Assembly (NCBI GenBank): GCA_040285855.1
Contig: JAUFOQ010000002.1
Location: 3,100,001 to 3,164,000 of the forward strand
Length of the DNA: 64,000 nucleotides
From: Eukaryota sp. GEM-RC1
Taxonomy: Eukaryota
Reading direction: 5' to 3'
In this document: positions 4,490 through 60,009 of the stretch, piece after piece
Position numbering within the stretch: position 1 is the first letter of the stretch
Layout of the letters: each line of letters opens with the position of its first letter
The notes under the pieces: generated by a model
What the model was told of the DNA's origin: nothing
The model's database searches: none
Seen by the model: the letters and a program-made list of their open reading frames with translations, nothing else
Made by a program: the position numbers and the translations under genes

Positions 4490-5990
4490 TATCAAAATTA
4501 CCTATATTGTCCAATCTTTTCAAAATTAAATATAATTCAAATAAAACACACATACCAGTCTTTTCATCATTTTCCAAATACTCTTTCAAAACATGAAACA
4601 ATTCCACAAGCACATCACTACAATAACGTTCATCAACATTATCCCTATTAATCACATCGGTAATGTAACAGTTTCTTATTGTTTTCACTTCCATACTTGA
4701 TGCAGATTCAGATCCAATACAATCTAGTACATTATCGACAATTGACTGAATTCCAATAGTTAAGTTCACTCTCAATTGTTTTGAAGTAGCAACACGATCA
4801 TACTCCAAAATAGGCGACAATGATATTGTTTCATAAGTCACATTGTCAGTTTGTTGATATTCACATATGGAATCACTTTTTTCATTTTCAAAGCTTTCAG
4901 TCTGAACTTCCTTGAGACAAAATCGTTTTTCATCATCAATAAGAGGAAACACTTGGGAACTTTTTTCTTTCTATACCAGCACTGACATTCCTATTTAATA
5001 ATAAATTCTTCGTTGGAAAAGGGGTTTTCTTCAAACGGGGAAGTGATGGTAGAGTAATGTTGCCGCGTGGTAATTGAGGAAGTTTAGACTTTTTCACACA
5101 AATCTCTGGGGAATTTTTGTTAAAAATTGAGTCACAATTAATAAATTTGGGAGGAATATTAGTTTCATCTTCTTCAAGTTCATCATTTACAACAAAATCA
5201 TCTAAACTTGTTGAAATTGTATCACTGTCAGATTCATCACCAGAATCGGATCCTGATAGTAGTGCTTCTGTTTCAAATAAATTCGATTTTTCGAAATGAT
5301 TTTTGTCCAAGTCAATAATCTGATTATCATTATTTTCAATAATTTGTTCATCAACATTATCAACAATAACTTCATCAACAACTTCATCAACACAATGAAC
5401 ATCTTCAGGAACAACCACATCATCCATAATTGGTTCACTCGATTCTGCACAAAAGTTTACAAACAATGAATTAAAATGATTGAAATCTCGTTGAAGACAA
5501 TGTTGATTTCCCAAAACATACAAATCAATAGTGGATGGCTTAACAGGATGAAAAGTTGAATAATACCATTGATACAATTCCAAATTTGGTGCTGGATAAC
5601 TTCTTCCAATGCTTAAAATCTTTAAACTCCTCCAAGACCTAACCCTACTTAAGGTCACATAAAGTTGGGCATATTCCCAAAACTGAATAGCAACTTCAAT
5701 CCCGTCAATTGTTGAACCTTGGGATCGATGCACTGTTATCGCCCAGCAAGGTCTTAGCGGAAACTGAATTCTTTTCGCCACTTGAACAGGTCTTCCGATT
5801 TCGTTCAAGTGTTCGATAGCAAACCTTGACTGACTGATTCTTTTCGGTTCTGCTTCAGCGTTGAACCGAACATCAATATATGTATCTGAAAAATTAACAA
5901 TAACTCCTTTTGAACCATTAACTAGTCCAAGTTCAGGCTTATTTTGAGTGTACATCACTTGTCCACCAAGAACACAGTCAAGTTTTTTAA
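4490..5990 (-). pseudogene. 5'-truncated Pif1-family (SF1B) helicase, C-terminal part
   Basis: GGQVMYTQN...LVNGSKGVI, RIQFPLRPCWAITVHRSQGSTI and QLYVTLSRVRS are Pif1/Helitron-helicase motifs. Walker A/B region is absent; an acidic tail continues through a frameshift into 4490-4952. Confidence 0.85.
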
Positions 5991-6004
5991 TTTAAAACTT
6001 AAAT

Positions 6005-8230
6005 TTGAAATCCAAAAGAATTGTTGCTATTGATCCTAATCAGCATGATTTGATGTACTGTGCTTCTTTAAAATCTAAGGAGGAAAAGAAAATCGAACGT
6101 TTCAATACGTCAGCCAATCTCAGAAGAAGAAAGATTTCTCCAAAATCATCAAAGAAAAAAGGAAGCTTGAAAAAATTAAAAAAAGAATTGAAGGATTGGA
6201 AAGACGCACCCACTATTGACAAACCAACAACTGTCAAATTGAAAAATCGTGATGATTGGAAAGTATTCAGATACACTGCTGGGGAACGCAATGCCGACAT
6301 TAAAAAGTCTCCATGGAAAAGAAAAAAACAAGGAAGGAAAGAAAAAGAGCTAAGAGAAAGAAGAGGAAGCTGGAGAAGAAAATAAGACGATATAATCTCC
6401 ACCGTTTATCTGAATCTGAACGGTTACAACAATACTCTACCCAATTTATTCACATTCCAGATGGCAGACGCATTGACATAAATGGGCAACAAATTTTAGA
6501 TCAATGGGGCTCTAACTCGCCAGGTAGTAAATCTTGTGAATTGACTCAGTATTCTGCTTTTGTTCTTGGTAAAGAAATTACCTGTTCTTTACTACGATCA
6601 CCCACTACTGATCAAAGAACTACAGAAGGAATTTACGAAGAAAAGTGGTTTAGACGGAATCGTCTCACTAGGGGTGTACAAAAACTCGACTCACGTTTAG
6701 ACTCGAGCTGAGTCTAGACTCAGACTTAGGCTCAGACTCAGACTCAGACTCACAATCCTTAAGTCCGACTCAGACTCAGACTCACAATCCTTAAGTCCGA
6801 CTCAGACTCAGACTCAGGTATTTCATATAAAATTATCTTATTAACAACAAACTCTCTAATGAAAGATCTTGCAAGAAAAAAAGTATGTGTTCGTAACGAA
6901 GAACAATCAACTGAGTTAGATGAACTTGATATCTATCTCAGTGATGGACTTATTGAAATGGACCAAGATCCTTTGATATAGTGGAAACTTAATGAATCAA
7001 AGTTCCCTACACTTGCAAGAACATCGCGAATTGCACTATCAGTTCAAGCCTCTAATGTAGCTTCTGAGTCTCTTTTTTCACAGGCTGGAATAGTTGTGAC
7101 TCCTGACAGATTACGTCTAACAGATTTAAATGTTGAAGCATGTGTCTGTCATAAGCGGTGGACAGTAGAATAATAATGGTTAATAATGTACTTAATTAAG
7201 ATTGTTTATGATGTGAAACTCAAGCTCAGACTCAGACTCAGATATTATGAGTGGGACTCAGACTCAGACTCAGATATGGTGAGTCGGACTCAGACTCAGA
7301 CTAGTTGAGTTCGACTCAGACTCAGATACGGTGAGTCGGACTCAGACTCAGACTTACAATAGCTGAGTCCGACTCGAGTCCGACTCGAGTCTTGTACACC
7401 CCTACGTCTCACACAGTATTCAAGAAAGGAACGAAGTGAGAAAAACATGCTTCACAGATTTGCTCTCCAGTTTGGAAACCCAGATGAAGTCGTTGTTGGG
7501 TATGGAGACTGGAACGACACTGCTTTTCGTCGAAGAAGAGGTAAAGCATCGACTGTAAAAGGTGCTTCAATTCGGAAATTATTGAGAAAATTTGGATTTA
7601 AAGTGTTCCTAGTTGATGAATTTAAGACCAGCAAATGTTGCTCTGCATGTGTTTCCAGAAACGACGAAGGTATCTGTTCCAATCCTGAAAGGATAAAAGT
7701 CACTGATCCTCATTGGAAGAAGAAGTTACAGAAGGAAGAGAAAAGAATTAAAAAAGGAAATTATGGAACACAATCAATTAGACAATATTGTGGAGCGTAA
7801 CTTTGATGATGAATGGACCAAACAGTTGTCATTATCAAAAGAAAGATTGAAGAGCAAAAAAGTCTCACCATGGGGCTTAGTTGAATGTGCTAAATGCCAT
7901 GTCCTCTGGAATAGAGACTTCAATTCTGCTATCAATATTTACAATATTGTAAATGGAACCATTCAAGGTCAAGGTAGACCTGCCATCCTCGAGAGACCAA
8001 AATCTCAAACAACACCTGTCGTGGATGGCGGGAATACAGATCAGATTCCTAAGAAAAAGACTGTGAGTAAGGGTAAGGGTAAAGCAAAGCGTCCTCTAAC
8101 AAAAGTCAGAGGTCCTAACAAGTGTGGTATATGTTTTCAACCTGGACATAACAGAGCAACTTGTCCAAATAAGCCTAAGAAAGATGTACCCAAGGACTCA
8201 CATGTAAACCAGAAAGATCAGGAATCTTGA
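6005..8230 (+). pseudogene. Fanzor (TnpB-like RuvC nuclease), 5'-truncated and disrupted by a hAT insertion
   Basis: RuvC-I IVAIDPN (D 6032), VVVGYGDW, RuvC-II LVDEFKTSKCCSAC (E 7618), ECAKCHVLWNRDFNSAINI (D 7916), RPAILER. Removing 6669-7412 restores the frame RNRLTQYSRKERSEKNMLHRF. Frameshifts near 6330 and 7760. Confidence 0.9.
6669..7404 (+). mobile_element. Non-autonomous hAT element
   Basis: TIR TAGGGGTGTACAA...TTGTACACCCCTA; 8-bp TSD CGTCTCAC (6661-6668, 7405-7412); subterminal GACTCA arrays; hAT dimerisation remnant (FPTLARTSRIALSVQASNVASESLFSQAG, ~6920-7170). Confidence 0.95.
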
Positions 8231-22816: not shown

Positions 22817-25800
22817 TTATTGCCCTACTAGGAAGTCTGCTTCAGATGATGCCAAGATTGCCGAAGTTGTTTTGTCTGTTGAGTCTAAACAGTCTGTTCT
22901 TGATTTCCAAGAGACTGTTTGTGAGCCTAAAATTAATTCATCAATTTCATTGACCTGTCTTTTTTGTGCTAAATCTGTTTCTGGGAAAAATAAATCCAAT
23001 CGTCCACTTCTTGTGTGTTTTGATTGTTCACCTATTGATGTATGTCGTCCACAATTTAGAATTCCTATCATGATATCTCCAATGGCGGCCGTTAATGTCG
23101 GGACTGCTCTTAGAAGTGTGACACAAATTTTACGTGGTGGAATTTGGAATCCCGCACCTTTTGGCGATATATGTTGTCAATTGTTAAGAAGTCCAATAGA
23201 AAAATTAAACCTGTTCTTAAGTCTCAAGTTAGTGATAAGTTTATTGCTAAAAGATTTCAAAATCTTGTTTTACGAGGTCAGTTTTCTTCTGCTTTGTCCT
23301 CCCTTAATCACACACTTCCAGCTGAAGTTTCTGTTGAAACTGTTGAAAAACTGAAAAAATTACACCCTGTTGAAGAATTTTCAGGCAATCCGGTTTTTGG
23401 TGAACTTTCCATGTCGTACTGGACTAACAAACCTGTTTTAGTTGATGAAATTTTACAATTAATTTCGTCATCCCCTTCTGGTCGTGCTGCTGGTCCTTCT
23501 GGTATGAGTTTTGATCATTTTAAAATTGCCGTTAATGCTGTTCCTGAAATTTGTGAAGATCTTGCTGTTTTCTTTAATGAAGTTTTATTAGGCACAAAGA
23601 AATTACCTCATGCTCTTTGCTCTTCTAGATTAGTGGCTTTAAGCAAACCAAATGGAGGTGTGAGACCAATTGCAGTGGGTGAAACAATTTCTCGTATTTT
23701 TTCAACTTTGTGCTTTAGGAGAGTCAGAGATTCCTCTGTTGAATTCTTTAGACCGTTTCAATTTGCAGTTGGAGTTCCTGATGGTACTACGTGTGCTGCT
23801 TTAACCTCTGATTTTCTTTTTCATTCAAATGAGGAAAATGCCATTTTGAACATTGATTTTAAAAATGCATTTAATTGTGTTTTAAGATCAACTATATCTG
23901 ACGAACTTTCTAAATTTTTTCCTCAGTTGATTCCCTATTTTAATATTTTTTATGGTAAAGCGTCGAATTTAATTTATGACAAGTTTGATATTAAATCAAC
24001 TAGAGGGGTTAAGCAAGGTGATCCTTTGGGTCCTTTTTTGTTTTGTCTCGCTCTGCAAAAATTATTTAAAATCTTACAATTAGAATTTCCAACTGTTAAA
24101 ATTTGTGCTTATGCTGATGATTCTTCGCTGATCGCTCCAGTTGACGTTCTCAAAAAGTGTTTTTCACGTTTCATCGAACTTTCTTTGAGTATTGGTTTAA
24201 CAATCAATTTTGATAAGTGTTTTCTTGTTGTTAAGTCTTCGAATGTTTCTAATCTTGGTTTTTGTAATATTCCTATCATCGATTATTCTACTCAATGTTT
24301 TCGTTTCCTTGGCACGTTTTTGGGAAATTTTGAGAAAATTCATTCAGAATTGGAGAGTTCATTAACTACAATTGAAGAAAAACTAAATCAAATATTATCT
24401 TTAGATGTGAGCAAACATGTTTCCTTTGCTATGCTTCAGGTCTGTTTTTCCGGGAAAATTAATCATTTTTTACGTTCATTAGACTATTCCCTTACTGAAA
24501 CATTTGCCAAGAAATGTAATTCTATTAGAACAAATTTTCTCTCTAACTTGGCTGAAATTGATGAGTCTAAGATTCCATTTCATGCTTTTTATTCTTCTGA
24601 ATTCGCAGGAGTAGGTTTCACCCATGCAAAAATCATTAGAAAATCTGCTCTTTTAGGAGGTGTTAAGAATTTTATGTTTGAATTTTTGAAACGGTTTCCC
24701 TTGGATGGAATCAATCTGTTGAATTCCAGTAATTGCCGTTGGATTCAATCTGCTAAAGATTTGTTATCATCTTTGTCTCCTGAAATGTGGGAATCTTTGT
24801 TCCCTGCTCATTTGAAGGAGACTCCTTTAAAAAATATTTCATCTCTACCATCTGCTGTATGTAAGCTGCAAAATAAATTGACAAGGAGTTTGAACTCTTG
24901 GACTTTAATAATCGTATTAGCTTGGCTAAAACTAATAGTCCCGAGTTCGCTGCTTTTTTAATCGATCTTTGTAATAGTGGACCTTCTGGATTTATTTCTC
25001 AAATTCCAAAGGTGTATGGATTACATCTATCTGATGAAGCTTGGATGATCAATATGCGTCTTCGTTTGGCTATTTGGCCTGCAAATTTATTAAACTATTC
25101 AACGTGCTCTTGTGGAGCTAATGGTGTTTTTCGTCATTTAATTAATTGTCGTTATTTTATTCATCTCCGTGCAGTAATTCATGATGGTGTACGTGATTCT
25201 TGTTATTCCATGTTTAAAGCACATGGTTTTCACTCTAAAGTTGAACCAGTTTTGAATCATCTTTCAGAAAATGAATTTACTGATCAAAAACGAGGGGATC
25301 TACATACTCCGTGGCTTAAATCGAGTCAAGCATTAATGGATTTTACTACAGTAGATGTATGTAACAAATCTTGTGTTAGTAGGATATTAGATTCTTCTTT
25401 TAATCCATTAACAGCAGCTGAAAAGCTCAAACACACCAAGTATGACTCTCAAGTAGAAGAATTAAATAGAAACTCATATTCCAAATTTGTGTTTCAACCT
25501 TTTGCTGTTTCTCTTTTGGATCTATTAGTCCTGCTGGTGATCAATTTTTCAAGGATTTCGAAGAATTGTGTAAAGAAAAGAAGCGTAAGTTTAGAATGGC
25601 TGAATGGAAAAACCGTATAGTGTTTTCCATATATCGAAATATGCCTTTCTATTTCTCTAGATTAATTGAGAAATTGTACAAGTTTGGTGTGAAGGTTCAT
25701 GTAGATAAACGTAATCTTTTACCGGGTGGTGATGAAGTCGTTTGGATTTAATCTTAGTATTATTTGTTTGTTTTTACAATTTCATAGTTTGTAGAAAGGT

Positions 25801-34306: not shown

Positions 34307-34822
34307 TAAAGAACAAAAATAATTACACTGGTCATTCTGTTGTAATTAGACTATTTTACTTTTCGATTTTCGGGCATTAGAGATTTCCGGTGTCAAATTG
34401 GAGTGAATAATTGAACCACTATACTAGTAGGAAGGAAGTGAGAAATTTCTCTGTCATTAATCACAGTATAGCATAATATGCTAAGCATATACACTTTTCT
34501 TGGATAAAAAGTAACTTTTGATTACGCATTTAAACTAAATAAACTGCACTTTGAGAATTACTGTGATGCACACTATGTGCTTGATTTTGTTCTATAACCT
34601 AGTTTTACCAGTAAAAACTTGACTCATTTTTTGTGTATTATGATACTCAAAGAATATTATCGCATGTTAATGAAGAGATACGTGATGATACTGTTAGAAG
34701 ACGCAATCAAGAAGACCGCAGGTGTGTTTAACAAGTAATGTATACGGTTGTTTATTATATGATGATGATCGTCAGTACTACAATGATGAGCCGTCGTTGT
34801 CATTTATGGTCCAGAGACCATA

Positions 34823-35267
34823 CACTAATCACGGTAATTAGTCTCACGTGGTAGTTAGTCTCACTCAGACTAATTTTCTGTTGTAACACTTTTAACTAAA
34901 ACTCGATTGGAAATAAGTCTCACTTTTTGTAATAGAAAAGTTCTTTTCAACAAATAGAACAACCTTCGGCTAATACAAATGCTGAACCACGACGATGTTT
35001 CTTCTATTCCCCTACCAGTAGCATCTCCATTGATGTTTGTATTTACACGTCAAGAAATTGTTGGTCAGGACGTCGTTCTTTCAATAATGAGCGTATTATA
35101 GCACATCCTTCTGGTTGCCGAAGGTTAATGGTTTACTGGTTGGTTTATCCATCCTAATATGATTGTTGTGGAAGTATATCAAGCTGACGAATGCTCTGCT
35201 ATTCTATTGATCATTATGAATGAGAACAAAATTTGGTTGGATGTGAGACTAATTACCATGATTAGTA
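34823..35267. mobile_element. Tc1/mariner-type MITE
   Basis: 25-bp TIR CACTAATCACGGTAATTAGTCTCAC / GTGAGACTAATTACCATGATTAGTA (2 mismatches), flanked by TA on both sides. Confidence 0.8.
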
Positions 35268-35612
35268 TAGCCTGACAAACAATTGACATACTCTCATTTG
35301 TGATGTTATAACCATTGCATTACTTGTCGAATACAATATAAATTAAGTATTTTAACAATTGCCCTCATCGACTCCAAAGCACTCCCAGCAGTGAGTTTTC
35401 TTTTGGAGGACAAAACTACTTTAATGTCACAATGGATGCAGATTGAAAATCGAGTCTCTTGTATTCATTCAGGTTGAGTAATATAAATCTTGAAAAACAC
35501 ACACACAATAGTAAGAGTTGATCAAGTTTCGGCTTCAATTTTATTCATCAATTAGAAAATAACACCATATTTTGCGTATTTTCATCCCAAATAAAAAAAG
35601 AAGAAATATCAC

Positions 35613-36110
35613 TCACAAAAAAGTGCGATACCCAATTATGGATAAATGTGAAACATAAAAGAACCAATGATGTGGTACAAATCTACAGTGTACTAAACGT
35701 TCATTTGAAAAGTGATTTATATGATTTGGAGAAGAAACATAATCATCCGCTGTCCTTTTATTAGTGGGGAAAGCGGATGCAAAAGCGGGTGCGATTTTCT
35801 GGTAGAATCTGACATCGCACCCGCTGTCTTTGTCTAATGTTTCTTTCATTAAGTAGACTTTACTTCTTGGTGGTTGATTTTGATCCTTTCTGAGCAATCT
35901 TGCGTTGTTTCGCCTTGTGTGCATAAATTCGGCGGTTTGCATTCTTGCCAAACTTGGCAAAAGTACAGCCGTGATTGATGGGTTGTCCCCGAACCTTTTT
36001 GTTGCATCTGAAACAAAAGAATCCCATGAAATCAGCTCATTTATACACATAGTTTTGTAATTATAGAATAAATATTGTTTTCTGTTTTCCAATTTCACAT
36101 CATATACCAT
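35613..36110 (-). CDS. Hypothetical protein divergent from the 2A/Fanzor cassette
   Basis: 165-aa ATG ORF starting ~140 bp from the 36253 ORF; no recognised domain. Confidence 0.4.
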   Translation of the reverse strand: MVYDVKLENRKQYLFYNYKTMCINELISWDSFVSDATKRFGDNPSITAVLLPSLARMQTAEFMHTRRNNARLLRKDQNQPPRSKVYLMKETLDKDSGCDVRFYQKIAPAFASAFPTNKRTADDYVSSPNHINHFSNERLVHCRFVPHHWFFYVSHLSIIGYRTFL

Positions 36111-36252
36111 ATACTGTTAGTTACAATTAGTACGACATCAACTGTTATTGTATCAGTGACATATTCTCAAACTTGTCAAGATGTCAACATGTCAATGTAG
36201 ACATTAACCACAAATAGTTCAAACAGAAATTTAAGATCATTCGCTTAGTGAG

Positions 36253-37371
36253 ATGTCTATCGACTTTGTGTTGGTTAGATATCTCACTGTGCTTCGTCTC
36301 CCCCACTGTCAGGAGCCTTCAATGGGTCTTTTGATCCTCAGATCACTCCTTTGCTTGGTTTGTTGTCTTATCACTCAAGACCGTCAGGTCTTTATGAAGA
36401 TTTTCATGGGTCCCTCGATCCTCAAATCTCTTCTATTTCTTTTTTGTTTTTGTCTTATCACTCAAGACCGTCAGGTCTTTATGAAGATTTTCATGGGTCC
36501 CTCGATCCTCAAATCTCTTCTATTTCTTTTTTGTTTTTGTTATAGTACTGCATACTGTAGTGGTTCTTGTTGTGCTGGTTGCATTACAAAATCCAAAATA
36601 AATCTCCAGTCATCACAATTTCTCCGTGATTTGACTATGGACGGGGACATTGAGTCTAATCCTGGACCCGATCTAATTGAAAATCATTCCAATATTGATT
36701 CTTTGCTACCTCATAGTTGGTTATGGACCACTATTGTAGACTTTTATGGACAGTACATTACTGAACATAGTGTTAAATGTTCATATCTCTCGTGTGAAGC
36801 ATTGTCACTTGCAATTACAGAGGACAATTTGGCTGAAGAAGAAAGAGATCGTTGGCATCTTCACAAACTATTTCAAGACACCTTAGATTTGATGAATTCT
36901 TTCAGACCACCAACCAAACAATATTTGTTTATTCCAATAAACGATGGTATCTTTAATAATGAAGCTACTCACGGGACTCTGTTGATTTGTGATATTAAGA
37001 GAAAAAGATACTATTCCCTTGATCCAATGTTTACTCAAAATCAACATCAAAAGTTTTCAGATACTTTAGGTCGTTGCGAAGATGTTATTAGACAATTTGA
37101 ATATGATGCTCTAGAAATGAGGAAAAGGATTTTGAATCTCATCATTGACACTCACACTGGTCAACATCGATCTGTTGCTCAACAAATTTTAAATTCAATC
37201 TTGTCTGGAGAAATTGTACAACAAACAATCGAAGTTCAACAAACAACTCAAGTTTCTACTGGTAGAAGAAAGACACAATGTCCCAAAACTAATCAACCTG
37301 CTGGAAAAGAAATAAATCTTCTGACACTTCTGAAAGAACTACACGTAAGTCATCTCGTCGTAAAACTCTAG
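36253..37371 (+). CDS. Polyprotein part 1: hydrophobic leader - 2A peptide - Ulp1/SENP8-like (C48) protease domain, degraded
   Basis: RDLTMDGDIESNPGP, then LLPHSWLWTTIVDFYGQYI and YLFIPIND...THGTLLICDIKRKRYYSLDP, matching C48 protease architecture; no QxNxxDCG catalytic Cys motif seen. Confidence 0.65.
   Translation: MSIDFVLVRYLTVLRLPHCQEPSMGLLILRSLLCLVCCLITQDRQVFMKIFMGPSILKSLLFLFCFCLITQDRQVFMKIFMGPSILKSLLFLFCFCYSTAYCSGSCCAGCITKSKINLQSSQFLRDLTMDGDIESNPGPDLIENHSNIDSLLPHSWLWTTIVDFYGQYITEHSVKCSYLSCEALSLAITEDNLAEEERDRWHLHKLFQDTLDLMNSFRPPTKQYLFIPINDGIFNNEATHGTLLICDIKRKRYYSLDPMFTQNQHQKFSDTLGRCEDVIRQFEYDALEMRKRILNLIIDTHTGQHRSVAQQILNSILSGEIVQQTIEVQQTTQVSTGRRKTQCPKTNQPAGKEINLLTLLKELHVSHLVVKL
36364..36540 (+). 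repeat. Perfect 87-bp in-frame tandem duplication
   Basis: CLITQDRQVFMKIFMGPSILKSLLFLFCF encoded twice (period 87). Confidence 0.95.
36613..36669 (+). other. 2A-like ribosome-skipping (StopGo) peptide 1
   Basis: SQFLRDLTMDGDIESNPG/P fits the D(V/I)ExNPG-P consensus. Confidence 0.85.
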
Positions 37372-37989
37372 AAGTAACTAATAAAATTTCGTCAAGTTAT
37401 TCTTCTTCATCTGACACATCCGTCAAAAACTCTAAAGCACGACGGCTAGAACGGAAACCAAAAAGTGTCATTCGTCAGTAATTCATCGTCCTCAAGAACA
37501 AGGTTCTAAACGTCAACAGAGACTGTATGATTTAAGTTGGGAAAAGTAGTAAGGTGAAGATGAATTGAGGAAGTCTAGGTCATCATCATAGTCACGTCTG
37601 AGCTCTACTCCTGTAACTAAATGAGAAAATCCAAGAATATCTTCAACTTCAAAGGAATCGTCAACATGTAGGAAAACAGATGACACAGCTGCTTTAAAGA
37701 GGGAAGCGATGGAAGTAAGTTGAGGAAGATCTTCAGGCAACATAGGAAACGTTGTAGTTTTAAAAAACACATTGGTTGATTGTTGTATGGATTCACTGAA
37801 ACGGTGACTGACTTGGCTAACCGGAAGAATACGGGCAAATCATGTATCAAGTGTTTGAAAGGACTATCAGGGGAAACGACATCCAACTCTAGAGAAGATC
37901 GTAAGTGACGTTTAAGCCACCGTGTGATTACAAAGATTAATAAGGACTTTTCTAGGTAAATTGGTATGAATTTTGGATGATTTAAAGAT

Positions 37990-40900
37990 GTGGATTGTGT
38001 ACCAATGCCTCAATCTCAATGGAAACGGAATCTCGCAGAAGATGGAGATGTTGAGACTAATCCCGGACCTCGCAATTCTCATGATCAATCTAGTGGTTGT
38101 ACAAAATTTCCAAAAACTGACGAAGAATGTCAAAGTTCGCAAGTAGTTGAAGGTTCAACTGGTTCTTTGAATGAATTTGAGGAAATTCCAGTTGTTAAAG
38201 GAAAAAAGGAAAAAGAATCAAGAATTCCATTTATTGACATTGCAACTGATACTGTTGTCGATGACTCCCTTCCTACAGTTTTTATAATTGATATTGAAAC
38301 AAGAAATATCAATGAGAGAATTCCTACACGAGTGAACAAAGAATTGAATGAACATCGTAGAACGGAAAAAGAGTCTTTGAAACAGAGAAGATTGTTAATG
38401 AATGATTTTGAGAAAGAAGCTCACGACCTTGATTTTCTCGCAGATCAACAAATCATCATGATCTCTGTCATTATTGCAAAATTGCAATCCAACGGTGAAT
38501 TACAATTTGACAACTCAATCGTCCTTTACACTGACTACAACTATAAAATCAAATTCAGTGAATCAGAAACACCAGCTTTTAAATTAGATCTTTTGGACTT
38601 CCCAAATGAAAACGAATTATTGGTTAAGTACGCTAATATTGTTAATCAATATAAACCAAATGCTTTTATTGGACATAATATTTTCAATTTTGATTTGCCC
38701 ATAATTGACAATAGAATGTGGGCTCTTGACCTTCCTCTTTTAACTAACCCAATTCCAATTCAGTTACCTTTACATAGTAGATGGCTGGATATCATAAAAG
38801 ATCACAATGGTTTTACAGTTTTGGATACCTTCATATTTGCAAAGAAGTATATTGGTCTCAAGTATGGTTGTAGTCTAGCTAATTTATCTTGGAATTTACT
38901 TTCTGAACCCAAATTGAAATTGGATAAAGACTTGGATCACTTACTCCCAGTTGATTGTTTAAGAAATGATAAAAGAATGAAAACTTTAATCAACTACTGC
39001 CTTCATGATTCAATTTTGGCGTTTAAATTGTTTATTTTATTTCAAAAAGACAAAATTGTTTTTCAATCATGGGCTTCTATTAAAACATCAGTTGTTAGTG
39101 TGGTAAAACATCAAGAAGTTCAAGATGCCATGCTTTTAGGATCTCAGTTTTACAATGCTTTAAGACAACAGACTACAATGTGTGTTAAAGAATATCTGTT
39201 GGCTCGCTATCGTCTTGGACAAGATTTGTCTAAGTTTGATTACAAGTTGTTTTATCATACAATGCTTTCAATTAGAAATCTTTCATCTGAAGTTCATGGA
39301 TTCAAAATATACAACAATTATCCTATATCAACAATTGATACAGATCTTCGTGATTTTGTTACTGGAGAAGGAATCTATACTGCCAATTCAAACTACCCCG
39401 GATATAAGCACTGTGTTACTGATACATTTGGCCAATGTCATATACCAGAACTGGATTTTGATCACATCAGTAGAGCTTTTGAATACACTACTCAGTATGA
39501 AATGTGGCCTGCGTTTGAACTAAATATTCGTCGCAATTATGAGTTGTACATTAAAAGATTTATCAATACAGTAATGGGTAAGAAAGAGTTTGAAAAGGGA
39601 ATGAAAGAGAGTCGTAATTTAGTTTTAGGTCCAGAACTTGCAGGACTAACAGGACGTGAAGCTCAAAAGTTCACTAGTTACTTCAGATTTCGATTAAAGA
39701 TGTTGAAAGACCAGATTTTGTATCGAGCTAGAGATGATGCCTTACACTACATTAATTCTTTTAACTCTGCCACTCACCCTGAAAATGTTAAGTTTATTGA
39801 TGAAGTTTCCAAAGTTTTTGATGATGATTTCAGTATGTTAATATTTGAACAGGTTAATTCTCTAATGGCTGATAAAATTCCAGAATTACTTCAAAGATTT
39901 AACATCATATTTCCTACTTCAATCACTACTAACGACAATGAAACTGTAGACGTTCATAATTTACTTTACACAGTTCAGGAGTATCCACTTCATTTTCTAA
40001 GAAATTCTCTTCAAATCTCAGATTACTTGGAATCCAAGGGTGCTAAGTTGTATAATGTAATTCCTTTAAGTTTAGAGAATACTCCTTGTTTTTTCCCAAT
40101 AGATACCAGAACTCTTTGGGGACTGGCTAAGCACTGTTTTGGATATAAGAATAAAGATAAGAAGATTGGTCCTTTACATTCAAAAGTGACTAATTACATG
40201 TCTGCTGATCAGATTAAAAACTTGACCCATTCTCAACAACAGGATTACTGGAAAAGATGGTTTAACTATGATGACAGAAGTTTTCACAAAGCCAATTTTG
40301 AATTCAACAACTATGCTGTAACTGATGGAATTTCGATTTGTTTTCAATTTGTGAGAAAGGATTTGAAAGGAATGAAATGTAAACCTGATTCAAGTAAAGC
40401 TTCAGTAAAAGTACAATATTTCAATGAATGTGATAGGTCTGATTTTTTATTTCTAAACAAATGGTTTATGTGGACATTGGAAAGAGAGATATGCTACAAC
40501 TTGCATCTAAATCAAATAGGGAAACTCAAAATCCTCTAAAGAAATACAACTTCTTACGATTGACATATGCTGAGTGGTCTAGAGTTTCAAGAAAGCATAA
40601 AAGAATCCACCAGTACCTTGTTAGAAGGAGATCAGGTACTACTACCGTGAGAGCAGGTGATGATATTCCATTAACTGTAACAATGAAAATTGAGAAATGG
40701 AACACTTGGTTAAGTGAAGAACAGAATTCTAAAACTGTTAATTACAATAAATTTAGAAAGTTTATTCTGGCTAAATGCATTCACTACAATGCAACTAAAG
40801 ACTTCTATGATTTGCATATATGGAGGATTCACAAAATCCAAAATCATGTCCATAAGCAAAAGACAGAGTCTAAATTGGTTAACAGCATTGTAAAAACTTT

Positions 40901-41353
40901 CGGTAGTCGTGACAAAATTGTACTATGTATTGGTGATTTAGGTCAGAAACCAATCACCAACTTAAAACACAGTCCACCATCCAGAACTAAGACTTGGACT
41001 TCATTCTTTCAGAGAAACGGTTTTTTAACAGTGATGAATGATGAGAGAAACACTTCGTCCAAGTGTCCAGAATGTCATGAAGATGTTTTTGAAACTTCTA
41101 TTGAGGTTGTCAACCCAAAGCCCAAATCAAGAGAGAAGAGAGAATGGATTCACCCACATGGCTTACTAGAGTGTAAGAGCAAACATTGTCTGGGAGAAGT
41201 CAAGAAGCGATTGAAGGGGAAAAGAAAGGGTACACAGTGCCCAGTCAAATGTATTGGAATCGAAACAAGATGGCTTGTTTGAACATGATGAACATGTTCG
41301 AGCATTGGATGAGTGGTAGTGATGAGAGAGTAGAGTATTTGTGTAGAAATTAG
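37990..41353 (+). CDS. 2A - PolB-type DEDDy 3'-5' exonuclease fused to Fanzor1 (frameshifts near 40450 and 41225)
   Basis: ExoI IIDIET (38290), ExoII GHNIFNFD (38671-38694), ExoIII YCLHD (38995-39009). In the same ORF follow Fanzor motifs NIRRNYELYIKRFIN, LYNVIPL...PIDTRTL and TDGISICFQFVRKDL; then RuvC-I VYVDIG (40473), IGDLG, DERNTSSKCPEC (E 41043), HGLLECKSKHC, and YWNRNKMACLNM...RVEYLCRN* (41249-41353). Confidence 0.88.
38014..38070 (+). other. 2A-like ribosome-skipping (StopGo) peptide 2
   Basis: SQWKRNLAEDGDVETNPG/P fits the D(V/I)ExNPG-P consensus. Confidence 0.85.
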
Positions 41354-41363
41354 CTTTATTTTT

Positions 41364-41446
41364 GTTAGCTGGCTGGTGAAACCCGGCCATATTTGGTTAA
41401 TTCCATGAAATGAATGAATTGACGAGAATCAAATCTTCTTGTTGAC
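41364..41446 (+). ncRNA. Candidate Fanzor omegaRNA scaffold (locus 2)
   Basis: Starts 10 nt after the stop. Closing stem GTTAGC/GTTGAC encloses hairpins TGGCTGG-TGAAAC-CCGGCCA (41370-41389) and GTTAATTC/GAATTGAC (41396-41423). Confidence 0.55.
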
Positions 41447-41890
41447 TTTGCCTCTAAAACTAGTATTAAGGTTCGAATATGACATAGAGGTTTATAAGGT
41501 AAAAGGAAAAGAGAATTCTAATGGTAAATAAAGCTAATAAATCAACACTGGTCTTCTCTCTTCTTCTTCAGTGTTTTGGAAATAATTCAAAATTTTGGAA
41601 AATAAGAAGATAGGTTACTTCTTATTACGTGGAGAAGAACGTTTAGGGGACTTCTGGTTCTTAATAAAGTCAAAGATTAGAATCAAATCCTCTAGATTTT
41701 TTTCGTGTTAGTACGATATTCTTCCTGAGATCCTTTTACAGTCAATAGTTCACGATACTCTTAAATTATCAGTAAATTAAGATAACAGAATAACAACTAA
41801 ATAACAACATTTGCAAAGTGATTTCAAATTTTTGGAAACACAGTTGATAACACTTTAGGAGTTTACTAAATACAATATTTGTATCGGCGA

Positions 41891-42403
41891 CAGTGTTCGA
41901 AGACACGCGTGGACACGTTTGGACACGCAGACACGTTTGGACACGGACACGGTGTCTTTTGAAAAACACGCAAAAAGACACGCAAAAAGACACCGCGTAT
42001 GTACGTGTTTTTCTGCAAAAAACCTAGAAAACTTCGAAAGTACCCTTTTATTTCCCTCAATATTGTTCGACTTGAATGTTTTTCTATATGCTATACCACA
42101 ACAGACTGCAATGCCAACAGAAAAGTGGCCAAAATACTGACATGATGCGTTGTCAAACAAACCTGGAACACAATTCAACTCAACAGAACCACAGAATCCC
42201 AGATTCAGTGATGGGATGTCAGATAAAGGCCAGAATTGGCCCAAAACAATGTTTTCATAGTCAAACTCTGTGTAGTTGACGAGAATTTTTTTTGAAAAAA
42301 CACGCAAAAACACCCAAAAGACACATCAAAGACACCGTGTGGACACGCGTGTTAACACCGACACGGTGTCTTTTAAAAAACACGTGGGAAATTTCGAACA
42401 CTG
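41891..42403. mobile_element. hAT MITE
   Basis: TIR CAGTGTTCGAA...TTCGAACACTG; 8-bp TSD ATCGGCGA (41883-41890, 42404-42411); GACAC subterminal repeats. Confidence 0.93.
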
Positions 42404-42915: not shown

Positions 42916-44000
42916 TTACTGAACAACTGCTCCACTAACAAAACGTTCACTGTCTAAATAAGGCGATTGGAAATATTCGTATTGTTTCCACCCACATCTG
43001 TTAAAGATTGAGGTACAATCAATATTCATGTTCACTATGACACGTTGCAAAATTGAAATTGTGTCATTAATTGTTCTTGGTGGATGATGAAAAGAAGCAT
43101 CCGCTACTCTGTTTCTGAACTGTTTAAAGAACATTTCAATTGGATTGTTCTCAGGAGTGTAAGGAGGGAGTATACGGTATTTTATACCGCAGTGGTGGTT
43201 AAGTGCTGCTTCAAGTGCAGGAGATCGATGAATGGCACACCCGTCTAACACCCATTTCGATCGAACACCATCATTATCTTGTACAAAACCTCCTAAGATT
43301 AAATCTGTTATAAAGCTCATGTATTGTAATCGTGAAAATGTCCTTTTGTATATGATGGAGTACATAACCATTTACATCTATGGCTACTATCAGACATACA
43401 GTTTCATCCATTTGAGGGGCTGGTGGAGCTGCTACGGGTGTTCCAACAGGAGAATATCCATACTGCCGTTGAAAATGGCAAGGAGTAAATGAGAGTTCAT
43501 CAATAAAGAGAAGTTGCGGTAGAAGTAAGATACCAAAGTCGGTTTGTAGTCGGTACTGAAAGCTGGTTATCAGTCTTAACCGAGCTTTGTACATCAAAGG
43601 AACACATTTCTTATGACTTAAACCATTTTTAATTATGATCCTTGGAAGCAGTTGATTTCGATATAAGAATGTCAAAAGTTGAGTAGATATACTGTTGTAG
43701 TTCGCGCAGGTAGATGTGAGGATTGTCAATGACCCAATCAACCACGGTTTTCACTTGTACTTCTGTCAGAATACGGCTAGTGCGTGTGCAGACAATTTCA
43801 TCATCAGTATCAGACATCATCTCAGTCTTCCATCGGCTAATGGTTGATTGACTGACGTGATAAAAGAACGCGATGTCATTTTGGGTGAGACCATGAAGTA
43901 GTAAGCAACTCATAGCTCTTGCTTTAGTATCAGGGCTGGCTTGAATCTTAGAAGACAAGATTTCATGTCCATTTAAGACATGGGAGTAATCAAATCCCAT
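42916..44000 (-). mobile_element. IS630/Tc1-mariner superfamily transposase, DD35E, frameshifted
   Basis: HTH (LTQNDIAFFYHVSQSTISRW; NPHIYLRELQ), LLFIDE, VLDGCAIH...LPPYTPENNPIE with 35 residues between D and E; spread over three overlapping frames; TIRs not found. Confidence 0.88.
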
Positions 44001-44142
44001 TATTTAGACAGATTCAGCTTATCAGAGAAGATGGAAACTTTTTGGGAAAAGGGAGAAAATGGGGCAAAAGAAAAACCGGAATATTTACCAGAATTAAGAC
44101 CCACTGTCTGATTCAGTTAACTTATTTTCCACTCTAACATCC

Positions 44143-57139: not shown

Positions 57140-58936
57140 TTGCCAATGTCGTGTACTCGTTTCTGCAGCGCTGCTGCATTCTTCCAGGAACGTGCACGGG
57201 CTTCAATTGTTGAAGACGTGGCCTTCTTAACAAAGGCAGCTTACTGGACGTCTCTCTTTGTCCGTAAGTTTCTCCACCAATTCCCCGAATTGGGTAGTTG
57301 GGCCACAACTCATGACTTCTGGGTCACAGCATTTGATTTCATGCTGAAGACCAATCCCAGATCTAGGGCCCAGTTCCAGGACAAGCCAAACCGGCATCCT
57401 GAAGTCTTTGCCGCCTTCTGGCAGACCAAATCTGCTTGGCCATACGGGGTGCTAGCCGGCCAAGTTGATGCTCAACTGGTATCAGCTCGGGCGAAACAAT
57501 TGGCCCAGAATCACCGCCAGATTCTGACTGACGGACCAGTGGTGTGGTCAACCAATTGGTTCCACACCATGGCTCAGTTACGAGGATGTCCTGTCCCAAA
57601 GGCATACTCAAAAGCCTGTGTTGGGACCAGCTCCTTTCCTCCATCCGTGCGTCAGTGGGTAGGGTCCAACCACCAAAGACTTCTAGAAGAATTTATCAAC
57701 TGTCTTGGTGGACCCGCTGCCTACTCACAGTGGCTTGAGATCCTCTCCAGTCGGTCTTTGCTGTTGAGTAGCGAGAAGGCCTCGTTTATATCAACAAGAG
57801 GTCTGAGATTGCTCTCCTACTTGGAAGCAATAGCTCCCGTGCTCATGAAGCGCAATAGGCTCTCACCTATTGCGTCTTTTGTACCAGGGATGATCACCCT
57901 CAGCGAACAGACCCTGGCTCGATACTGCCGCCTAAATGATACTAGGGCCTTAATGATTTCTCCATATGAAAAGCACCACGAGAAGCCTTCCAGATATCCC
58001 ACGTGGGCCATGTCTACTAATGGCCTCAGTGTTTATGTTTCCTTTCAACCAAAGGTTCGTCTGAAACGACGACGAAGAACCAAAGCCGAAATGGAGGTGG
58101 CTCGTGATGCAGGCAGCATTGATGATTTTCGCCCTAGAGAAGTAAATCGAAAAAAGAATCTTAAAGGCAAAATCCCAAGACGAAATTGGCAAGAGGTTCC
58201 AGATGATTCTTGGCCTCAAAACCCAGTTGATCCTTTCTTCGTTGCCATCGACCCCAACCACAAGAACTTATGTGGTTGGACTGCAGGGGTAACTGATCCC
58301 GATGGACCACAACACTCAGGTCTCCTGCTGAACCCTAAACCAGAAGAATGGGTTCCTGAACGCACGATTACTCAGCTGAGTGCTGATGTGTACCTTGCTC
58401 AAGACTTCGACCAGTACTTGTTTGAGATCACAGCTACACGTGAAAACCTGGGGAATCAGTCTATTGTTGACTTTCACCTAAGTCAGGGCCTTGTTTGGGA
58501 GCGTCGAAGACGAAAGTTCGATTTTTTGATAAGAAAACAACAACGATTAGACAATTTTGTTGTAAAGATAGAGAAGCTAGCCGAAAACAGGCCTGTTTAC
58601 ATTTGGTTTGGAAAAGGAGGAGATGGAGCATCACGCCAGGCTGTCAAGAGTCCAAGAACATGGTTTCTGAAAGCTCTGAAAACTCGATTTGATCATGTAA
58701 AGATGGGAGATGAATACTATACATCAGCTAAAGTGGCTTGTCACCGTCAGTTTGGAAGGAAACTTCGTGTACTTGTGAATGGAAATATGAAGACTCTGTA
58801 CACCCACTTTCAATGTCCGGTATGCTCTTTAATTTGGTCTAGGGACATTTCAGCGTCCATCAACCAGTGGTACATCGCTCTGGAGGAATACTATCACAAT
58901 AGTAGGCCGATAGAGTTTCGACGTCCACATAGATAA
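57140..58936 (+). CDS. Intact Fanzor (TnpB-like RNA-guided endonuclease), ~598 aa
   Basis: TNGLSVYVSF; RuvC-I VAIDPN (D 58250); YIWFGKG; RuvC-II GDEYYTSAKVACH (E 58712); FQCPVCSLIWSRDISASIN (D 58844); terminal RPIEFRR. Confidence 0.9.
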   Translation: MPMSCTRFCSAAAFFQERARASIVEDVAFLTKAAYWTSLFVRKFLHQFPELGSWATTHDFWVTAFDFMLKTNPRSRAQFQDKPNRHPEVFAAFWQTKSAWPYGVLAGQVDAQLVSARAKQLAQNHRQILTDGPVVWSTNWFHTMAQLRGCPVPKAYSKACVGTSSFPPSVRQWVGSNHQRLLEEFINCLGGPAAYSQWLEILSSRSLLLSSEKASFISTRGLRLLSYLEAIAPVLMKRNRLSPIASFVPGMITLSEQTLARYCRLNDTRALMISPYEKHHEKPSRYPTWAMSTNGLSVYVSFQPKVRLKRRRRTKAEMEVARDAGSIDDFRPREVNRKKNLKGKIPRRNWQEVPDDSWPQNPVDPFFVAIDPNHKNLCGWTAGVTDPDGPQHSGLLLNPKPEEWVPERTITQLSADVYLAQDFDQYLFEITATRENLGNQSIVDFHLSQGLVWERRRRKFDFLIRKQQRLDNFVVKIEKLAENRPVYIWFGKGGDGASRQAVKSPRTWFLKALKTRFDHVKMGDEYYTSAKVACHRQFGRKLRVLVNGNMKTLYTHFQCPVCSLIWSRDISASINQWYIALEEYYHNSRPIEFRRPHR

Positions 58937-59030: not shown

Positions 59031-60009
59031 CTTGGGTCTCCTACTTTTACAATGGACTCCCAAGATATGTTTGTGAATGGGTAATTTGTGAACTAAGAAT
59101 TCCGAAGAATCCATTTCAAATGAAATCCACAGATGCAGAAGTTCTTTTCCTCTTCCTCTGCTCCAGTGTTTTTGGAGTTCGTGTACGTACAAATTTGTTA
59201 AGTACGTACTTCTTTGTAAATACGTACTCGTACGTACTTCACGTACTTTCCTGTTCTGAAGTCTAATCTGCATTGATTGACCCCTTTTGTTCTCAAGATA
59301 AGGGGTCATAACAACACCAATATTGTATGAACATTTGTTGAACTCATAAAACACTTTATCATCATCTTGAAAAAACACACCAGTTCAAAGTCTGCAGCAG
59401 AAATCAGGATGTGGAACTGTACTTGTCTTAAGAAGGGGTTCTTCAACGGCTAAGCAAGTCCTTCTTTCAGACGTCAGGAGGTGCATCAGTAGGTTTGATT
59501 CCAATGTTAGCTAATTCCCTCAGTAAGAGGTGTTATAAAAGCAGATGTTTACAAAAGTTTTATGTGTACCATGAGAAATAAACTCCACTTGACTAACAGT
59601 GTGCTAAGTCGCTTGAAAAGAACGCCTGAGTATCAAACTAAGAAGTGTATTAGGAGAACTGGTGTAAATGGAGGTGGATGAACGACTCAGAACAGATGAA
59701 ACGTATTGCACAACAGGATTCTATGAAGAAACAGAGATGATGAGCATAAGAATGTAGGTGGGTTAGAGAAGTACGATAAGTACGGAAAATACGGACTGAA
59801 CTTAGAAGTTCAAATACGGCGTATTTAGGCTGAAGTACGCGTATTTCCGAAACAGTGCTCTGCTCTAAGTGCGTTTTCCTCTGACATGTTCATCTACAAT
59901 ATGAATCATGTTCAACACAGCTTTTCTGTGCATTCTGTTTGAGCTTCTCATCTCAACCAGAGGTGGGAAAAAATATTTCTATTTAAATGATTTTCTTTTT
60001 TTTTAAAAT

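Follow-up and report, generated by a model that had tools for sequence, protein, structure and literature searches.

The gene analysed here belongs to a clade of Fanzor1 in which a family B DNA polymerase (PolB) proofreading exonuclease is joined to the first strand of the WED domain. It represents a real, conserved Fanzor1 variant with a catalytic-type end-processing domain, apparently undescribed and seen so far in three related protist genomes. The gene lies in a 64,000-nucleotide stretch of a contig from Eukaryota sp. GEM-RC1, hereafter called the window. An initial annotation of this DNA had proposed an in-frame exonuclease-Fanzor fusion, and this was confirmed by a single open reading frame, by matches to both PF03104 and a Fanzor profile, by sibling copies, by copies in other species, by a phylogenetic tree and by a structure model. 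The analysis also revealed features that the annotation had not contained, i.e., two frameshifts, a 2A-like motif, an upstream Ulp1-like module and a D-E-N triad in the RuvC domain.

Architecture of the fusion gene

The exonuclease and Fanzor sequences share one ORF on the forward strand (37981-40539, 852 aa from stop to stop), which crosses the junction in a single frame. The encoded protein has 844 aa when read from the ATG at 38005 and 849 aa when read from the GTG at 37990. The gene and its surroundings contain the following features.

36253-37371 (+): upstream ORF (372 aa); its leader is hydrophobic and contains an 87-nt tandem duplication; also a 2A-like motif and a weak Ulp1/C48 protease-like domain
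36628-36669 (+): 2A-like StopGo motif 1; DLTxDG-type upstream motif and canonical core octamer (36646-36669)
38047-38070 (+): second 2A-like StopGo motif, a canonical octamer that lies ahead of the exonuclease in the same ORF and frame
38269-39054 (+): PolB-type (DEDDy) 3'-5' exonuclease domain, from PF03104, motifs and fold
38290-38298 (+): ExoI, DIE in translation
38674-38694 (+): ExoII, HNIFNFD in translation
38995-39009 (+): ExoIII, YCLHD in translation
39061-40442 (+): WED-REC lobe of Fanzor1, sharing the frame of the exonuclease; its first WED lysine is at 39082
40443-40448 (+): frameshift 1, a T6 run just 5' of RuvC-I; 11 of the 11 other close copies reaching the site read through
40449-41219 (+): second frame, with RuvC-I Asp (40473), RuvC-II Glu (41043) and a C4 zinc finger (41064-41189)
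41216-41223 (+): frameshift 2, a G/A run ahead of RuvC-III; both frameshifts lie in homopolymer runs
41220-41353 (+): RuvC-III, with Asn (41264-41266) as third catalytic residue, for which GtFz1 is a precedent, and the stop codon
41300-41460 (+): weak candidate for an omegaRNA, containing a G+C hairpin (41370-41389); z -2.06, with 6 of 200 shuffled sequences folding equally well

In Pfam, the N-terminal part of the fusion ORF matched PF03104 with an E-value of 4.5e-14 and a score of 52.9 bits, the cut-off being 23. The PolB DEDDy signatures, i.e., DxE in ExoI, NxxxFD in ExoII and YxxxD in ExoIII, are all present between 38290 and 39009, and the motifs are complete, as had been claimed. Together with the fold matches described below, these results answer the concern that the N-terminal domain might not be DEDD-like. 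The polymerase family PF00136 gave no match in the fusion ORF or in the relatives' proteins scanned, and the palm, fingers and thumb of a family B polymerase have a Fanzor fold in their place. The annotation was thus correct that no polymerase domain follows the exonuclease.

The profile check that had been suggested was carried out as proposed, and the Fanzor profile matched the same ORF as PF03104. This profile derives from 87 hits to stand-alone Fanzors, all free of any exonuclease match. In the 844-aa protein its alignment starts at residue 353, which pairs with profile position 17 of 666 (E 2e-42) and lies 18 residues past the ExoIII Asp. By alignment, the segment IKTSVVSV is the first WED strand and corresponds to K25-T26-S27 of SpuFz1.

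Downstream of the WED-REC lobe, the second frame of Fanzor is open over 40443-41282 and the third frame ends at 41353. The RuvC-II Glu at 41043 lies six residues ahead of the zinc finger, whose first Cys is at 41064; this arrangement is described as a Fanzor1 feature (PMC13565253). The Fanzor1 motif D-X(125-275)-[TS][TS]xx-C4 zinc finger-X(5-50)-RD fits, except that it ends in N, as it does in GtFz1. The motif is split by the two frameshifts in the window copy and is whole in the relatives P0012, P0022 and P0178. Six close copies reach the second frameshift site, where one is in frame, four shift one way and one shifts as in the window. A programmed -1 frameshift at this site was considered and rejected, because the run is out of slippery-heptamer phase and the copies shift both ways. 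As assembled, with breaks that may be mutations or long-read errors, the window copy cannot encode the full nuclease.

The possibility that the junction is a gene-model chimera or an assembly artefact was ruled out by the single-frame DNA and the fixed junction in relatives. The argument that the fusion is not a frameshift artefact was borne out too, with sibling copies, other species, the tree and the model all backing the junction.

Distribution and phylogeny of the fusion family

The protein nearest to the window fusion, P0001, is 95% identical to it. Its 90% cluster has 18 members, and those listed include 14 from Eukaryota sp. GEM-RC1 and the window's own protein. A second 90% cluster, of 11 members, belongs to TZLM1-RC, which we take to be the third isolate of the skoliomonad genome paper. 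When 1.84 billion representatives were searched with a profile, 1182 matched at E <=0.001, and the exonuclease was present in 8 of the best 150 of these. The exonuclease profile matched 27 of the 191 collected proteins: 7 from GEM-RC1, 4 from TZLM1-RC, 12 from TZLM3-RCL, the window's own and 3 others. The fusion family comprises about nine subfamilies in three named protist genomes, where it is multi-copy, and its members are likely mobile elements (jumping genes). GEM-RC and TZLM3-RCL are described as skoliomonads, free-living anaerobic metamonads (10.1101/2023.05.03.539051).

Most copies of the family are fragmentary as gene models. Four relatives, P0022 (1233 aa), P0028, P0177 and P0178, combine ExoI-III with Fanzor through RuvC-III in one predicted protein, and they come from two named genomes other than GEM-RC1; as gene models, they could hide modelled introns. 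P0177 (2027 aa) carries a DEAH-type helicase at its N-terminus, found in one of four cluster members, which may be a gene-model join.

In a Fanzor tree of 75 rows (FastTree), seven fusion rows and eight shortened kin formed one clade with an SH-like support of 99. The exonuclease tree (35 rows) placed the eight family rows in one long-branched clade outside the 27 polymerase rows, which are mostly Pol delta. Since this clade lies outside all sampled polymerases, the tree singles out no donor polymerase. When DNA of the relatives was sought in viral contigs, two ordinary PolB genes and no fusion were found, and the metagenome contigs scanned gave no match. The ESM Atlas yielded PolB exonuclease clusters at 0.82, which we regard as a lead only.

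Conservation of the exonuclease and the junction

Pairwise identity of the exonuclease ranges from 20 to 40% among seven subfamilies. Over 10 pairs, identity was 30-41% for the exonuclease and 28-53% for the Fanzor WED-REC lobe, so that the two domains are kept alike. The catalytic acids were counted in the 27 exonuclease-matching proteins, using those that cover each site: ExoI D and E are kept in 17/17, ExoII D in 18/18 and ExoIII D in 23/24, counts that have a slight bias from seven seed domains cut at the Exo motifs and include close copies that are not independent. The single ExoIII miss is a frameshifted tail. In P0056, whose row in alignment A5 is poorly aligned, a Thr replaces the ExoII Asn and ExoIII is shortened.

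The RuvC triad D-E-N was found by motif scan in 21 family proteins, and P0018 has D at the third position. A nuclease-dead Fanzor, as might be suspected from replacement of the third catalytic Asp by Asn, was rejected because GtFz1 with Asn is active and the SpuFz1 mutant D606N is reported to be more active (PMC11423790).

The distance from the ExoIII Asp to the first WED Lys or Arg is exactly 25 residues in all 11 of 11 proteins, which represent about nine subfamilies. At the level of sequence, this invariant spacing argues for a packed joint rather than a loose tether.

Structure model

Structure prediction, the second check that had been suggested, was performed on the intact relative P0178 and produced a PolB exonuclease fold and an SpuFz1 fold. 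The AlphaFold2 model, obtained with a 90-row alignment, had a pLDDT of 78.8 and a pTM of 0.71 (single-sequence AlphaFold gave a pLDDT of 34), and pLDDT across the junction was only 73-82. Using VIA-align, residues 131-380 matched PolB exonucleases (Z 15.7-16.9) and residues 383-1096 matched SpuFz1 18-631 (Z 26.3, rmsd 3.4 over 574), so that the Fanzor fold begins after a gap of 2 residues. The full-length Fanzor1 fold, with an enlarged REC lobe, is present in the model. Foldseek ranked SpuFz1, PpFz1 and GtFz1 first and family B polymerases next, and a Foldseek search of a viral library was led by viral Fanzors.

In SpuFz1, the WED residues H21, T22 and K25 touch the first guide-target pair beside the TAM (PMC10432273). 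The joint of the fusion therefore leads into the counterpart of the strand that makes these contacts in SpuFz1.

Upstream modules and element boundaries

The upstream ORF matched PF02902 in Pfam with an E-value of 0.0036, below the cut-off. His and Asp motifs were seen in it, and QxNxxDCG is absent from every frame. Its 90% cluster has one member, and BLASTP matches were weak, to P0056 (E 0.19) and P0186 (E 0.017). In P0025, P0056 and P0186, Ulp1-like modules with QxNxxDCG-type motifs precede the exonuclease in the same ORF. Judged from these data, the upstream ORF probably belongs to the same element as the fusion.

A six-frame translation of the window contains two canonical 2A octamers, where 0.00017 would be expected. 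Both cores have the form (D/G/C/N)(V/I)ExNPGP, and the first is preceded by an upstream motif of a known class, DLTxDG being among those described (PMC12846837). Among the 191 collected proteins, eight contain 2A-like motifs; all belong to the fusion family, they represent five subfamilies, and the motif always lies 5' of the exonuclease. Four of these eight motifs have His in place of the core Glu. A 2A-like motif would free the exonuclease-Fanzor protein from the upstream protease module.

A search for terminal inverted repeats and target site duplications around the gene found no transposase and no element ends for the fusion element, and the omegaRNA candidate had no matches in Rfam.

Other features of the window

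Two further Fanzor-like sequences occur in the window. A second, unrelated ORF of 596 aa at 57140-58936 (+) lacks an exonuclease, forms a long branch outside the fusion clade and falls in a 3-member cluster. At about 7400-8230 (+) lies the broken C-terminal part of a third Fanzor, with hexamer-like repeats before it and a CCHC knuckle after it. Some 200-230 nt 3' of both long Fanzor genes, at 41555-41580 and 59148-59175, there is a pyrimidine-rich run with a similar CAGTGTTTT motif. This shared motif could be due to chance, mark an element end or reflect a common target.

The non-coding element at 41891-42403 carries terminal inverted repeats, shows a target duplication of exactly 8 bp and resembles a hAT-like MITE. 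A Tc1/IS630-like element with 22-nt inverted repeats occupies 42950-44011, and its frameshifted HTH and DDE_3 transposase is on the minus strand. The 449-nt segment at 34821-35269 is MITE-like, with 27-nt inverted ends that are 93% complementary. A 167-aa ORF at 35613-36116 (-) points away from the fusion element and has no Pfam match; a weak lead (0.88, 77 shared features) connects it to retrotransposon gag. Frameshifted ORFs resembling non-LTR reverse transcriptases, judged by eye from the translation, are present at 23114-25620 (+), and a Pif1/RecD-like helicase fragment, possibly derived from a Helitron, at 4936-5991 (-).

Possible role of the exonuclease

We propose, with a probability of about 0.45, that the exonuclease trims the TAM-side single-stranded 3' tail that Fanzor would leave, after which repair would copy the element back (restorative homing). 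Cutting of the empty site and restoration of the element by gene conversion have been proposed generally for OMEGA nucleases (PMC13565253). The cut geometry is known for two Fanzors: on the non-target strand, the distance between cut and TAM is 16-17 nt for SpuFz1 and 14-17 nt for GtFz1 (PMC10432273). By analogy, the fusion protein would cut an empty site and leave a 3' tail of 14-17 nt beside the TAM. This tail would presumably be right-flank sequence and would be non-homologous on the donor, where the element follows the TAM. It would have to go before synthesis; left in place, it might anneal, so that the empty site would be rebuilt. An exonuclease anchored at the TAM junction and specific for single strands would halt where the Fanzor-held duplex starts, and with the element-bearing chromatid as template the element would be restored. 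Retention of Fanzor on the TAM-side product is assumed here from the behaviour of Cas12a.

The initial annotation had suggested that resection by the tethered exonuclease biases repair toward homing. This needs correcting: recombination depends on 3' tails, which a 3'-5' exonuclease is unable to make and can only shorten, and the plausible role is therefore removal of a non-homologous 3' tail. Tail trimming is preferred because of the SpuFz1 cut geometry and two precedents: proofreading by yeast Pol delta removes non-homologous 3' tails during gene conversion (PMC9477423), and the 43Exo activity of T4 polymerase affects the efficiency of intron homing (PMC2988022). Two reports count against it. 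Empty-site restoration is shown for bacterial TnpB and IscB, the only cases listed in a review (PMC13565253), and fusions to TREX1, TREX2 and T5 exonuclease impaired the engineered Fanzor2 evoMmeFz2 (PMC12923547). Further counterarguments are that the search around the gene yielded neither a transposase nor element ends, that the model has a modest pLDDT at the junction and that most copies are fragmentary gene models. That the protein is a natural single-chain RNA-guided endo-exonuclease, in which the domain trims the displaced strand to the TAM and the defined end steers repair to the homologous donor, we advance as a tentative proposal that falls somewhat short of an even chance. If true, the protein would be a homing machine complete in itself and would offer a ready-made design for genome editors that favour templated repair.

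Alternatively, the exonuclease could degrade cut ends without a defined stop, blocking religation and deleting or destroying targets (empty sites, rival elements or viruses) in the manner of Cas9-TREX2. The intact active site and the tethering fit this mode of action too, and engineered Cas-exonuclease fusions exist. However, deletions at the empty site alone do not preserve the element, and PolB proofreading domains prefer single-stranded ends. With the impairment of a Fanzor2 by such fusions (PMC12923547) as a further counterargument, we consider the deletion bias suggested in the annotation unlikely and retain it only as a rival reading.

A role in transposition or replication intermediates of the element, with Fanzor merely a carrier in a polyprotein, would agree with the polyprotein layout and with the occurrence of DEDD exonucleases as transposon accessories (KolobokD, PMC9587614; P and piggyBac, PMC3627910). 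It is made quite improbable by the junction length, which is constant in 11/11, and by the 2A-like motifs, which could separate modules but were never found between exonuclease and Fanzor.

Trimming of the omegaRNA, in which the exonuclease would mature the element transcript by cutting its 3' end back to guide length, had been suggested as well and was judged less likely, with a low probability. The Fanzor guide is indeed the transcript 3' end (PMC13565253), and Terminon DEDDy exonucleases have been proposed to process RNA or ssDNA 3' ends (PMC6431247). On the other hand, the sequence and fold relatives of the domain, among the matches listed, are proofreading domains of DNA polymerases and not RNase D/Rrp6, the domain is anchored at the guide end that lies closest to the scaffold (PMC10432273), and 87 stand-alone Fanzors do without an exonuclease domain.

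Finally, the near-invariance of the catalytic acids at 20-41% identity makes it very improbable that the domain serves only for structure or DNA binding, or persists as a neutral relic, with a nuclease activity that is irrelevant, even if the Pol alpha exonuclease domain, which is inactive, is among the equally good fold matches.

The fusion clade bears on what Fanzors do in eukaryotic genomes. A catalytic end-processing domain that has remained fixed to the nuclease while the sequences diverged to about 30% identity suggests selection on the fate of cut ends. Comparing exonuclease-dead with wild-type protein would test directly whether restorative homing takes place in eukaryotes. For tool design, the family offers an evolved geometry for a type of fusion that lowered activity when engineered on Fanzor2.

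Comparison with known systems

In titles and abstract openings of the open full-text literature searched, no natural Fanzor-exonuclease fusion was found. The word "exonuclease" does not occur in the main texts of PMC3627910, PMC10432273, PMC10530073, PMC10711439 and PMC13565253, and supplementary Fanzor catalogues could list these proteins. Likewise, "Fanzor" does not occur in the skoliomonad genome paper (10.1101/2023.05.03.539051).

The family resembles Fanzor1 (SpuFz1, 8GKH and 9CEU-9CEZ; PpFz1, 9CF0; GtFz1, 9CER) in its WED-REC-RuvC-zinc finger fold (Z 21-26), in sequence (phmmer E 1.6e-14) and in the Glu six residues ahead of the zinc finger. With GtFz1, described as active (PMC11423790), it shares the D-E-N triad. 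Unlike in these proteins, a catalytic-type exonuclease of 250 aa replaces the short N-terminal tail, and 2A-like and Ulp1-like modules lie upstream. The exonuclease itself resembles the proofreading domain of family B polymerases in ExoI-III and in fold (PDB 3iay, E 3.4e-11, Z about 16); Pol delta is best by sequence, and alpha, epsilon and Pol II tie by fold. It differs from these polymerases by the absence of a polymerase domain and by forming a long-branched clade outside the 27 sampled rows.

Mobile elements are already known to carry 3'-5' exonucleases, namely the DEDD enzymes of KolobokD, P, piggyBac and LTR elements and Terminons (PMC6338049, PMC3627910, PMC6431247, PMC9587614). Those accessories are described as DEDDh/DnaQ-like or DEDDy, and none is joined to an RNA-guided nuclease in the parts of these sources covered here.

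PolB proofreading acts on 3' ends in homing or gene conversion, as we propose here, in two known cases: 43Exo in homing of the T4 td intron, and Pol delta in yeast. There the activity sits in the replicative polymerase and not on the cutter.

The analogy to engineered Cas-exonuclease fusions drawn in the annotation holds for the tethering of an exonuclease to an RNA-guided cutter, as in Cas9-TREX2, exoCasMINI and evoMmeFz2-TREX/T5. It does not extend to performance, since the engineered Fanzor2 fusions lowered editing. Unlike those constructs, the fusion described here is natural, has a fixed 2-residue joint and uses a PolB-type domain.
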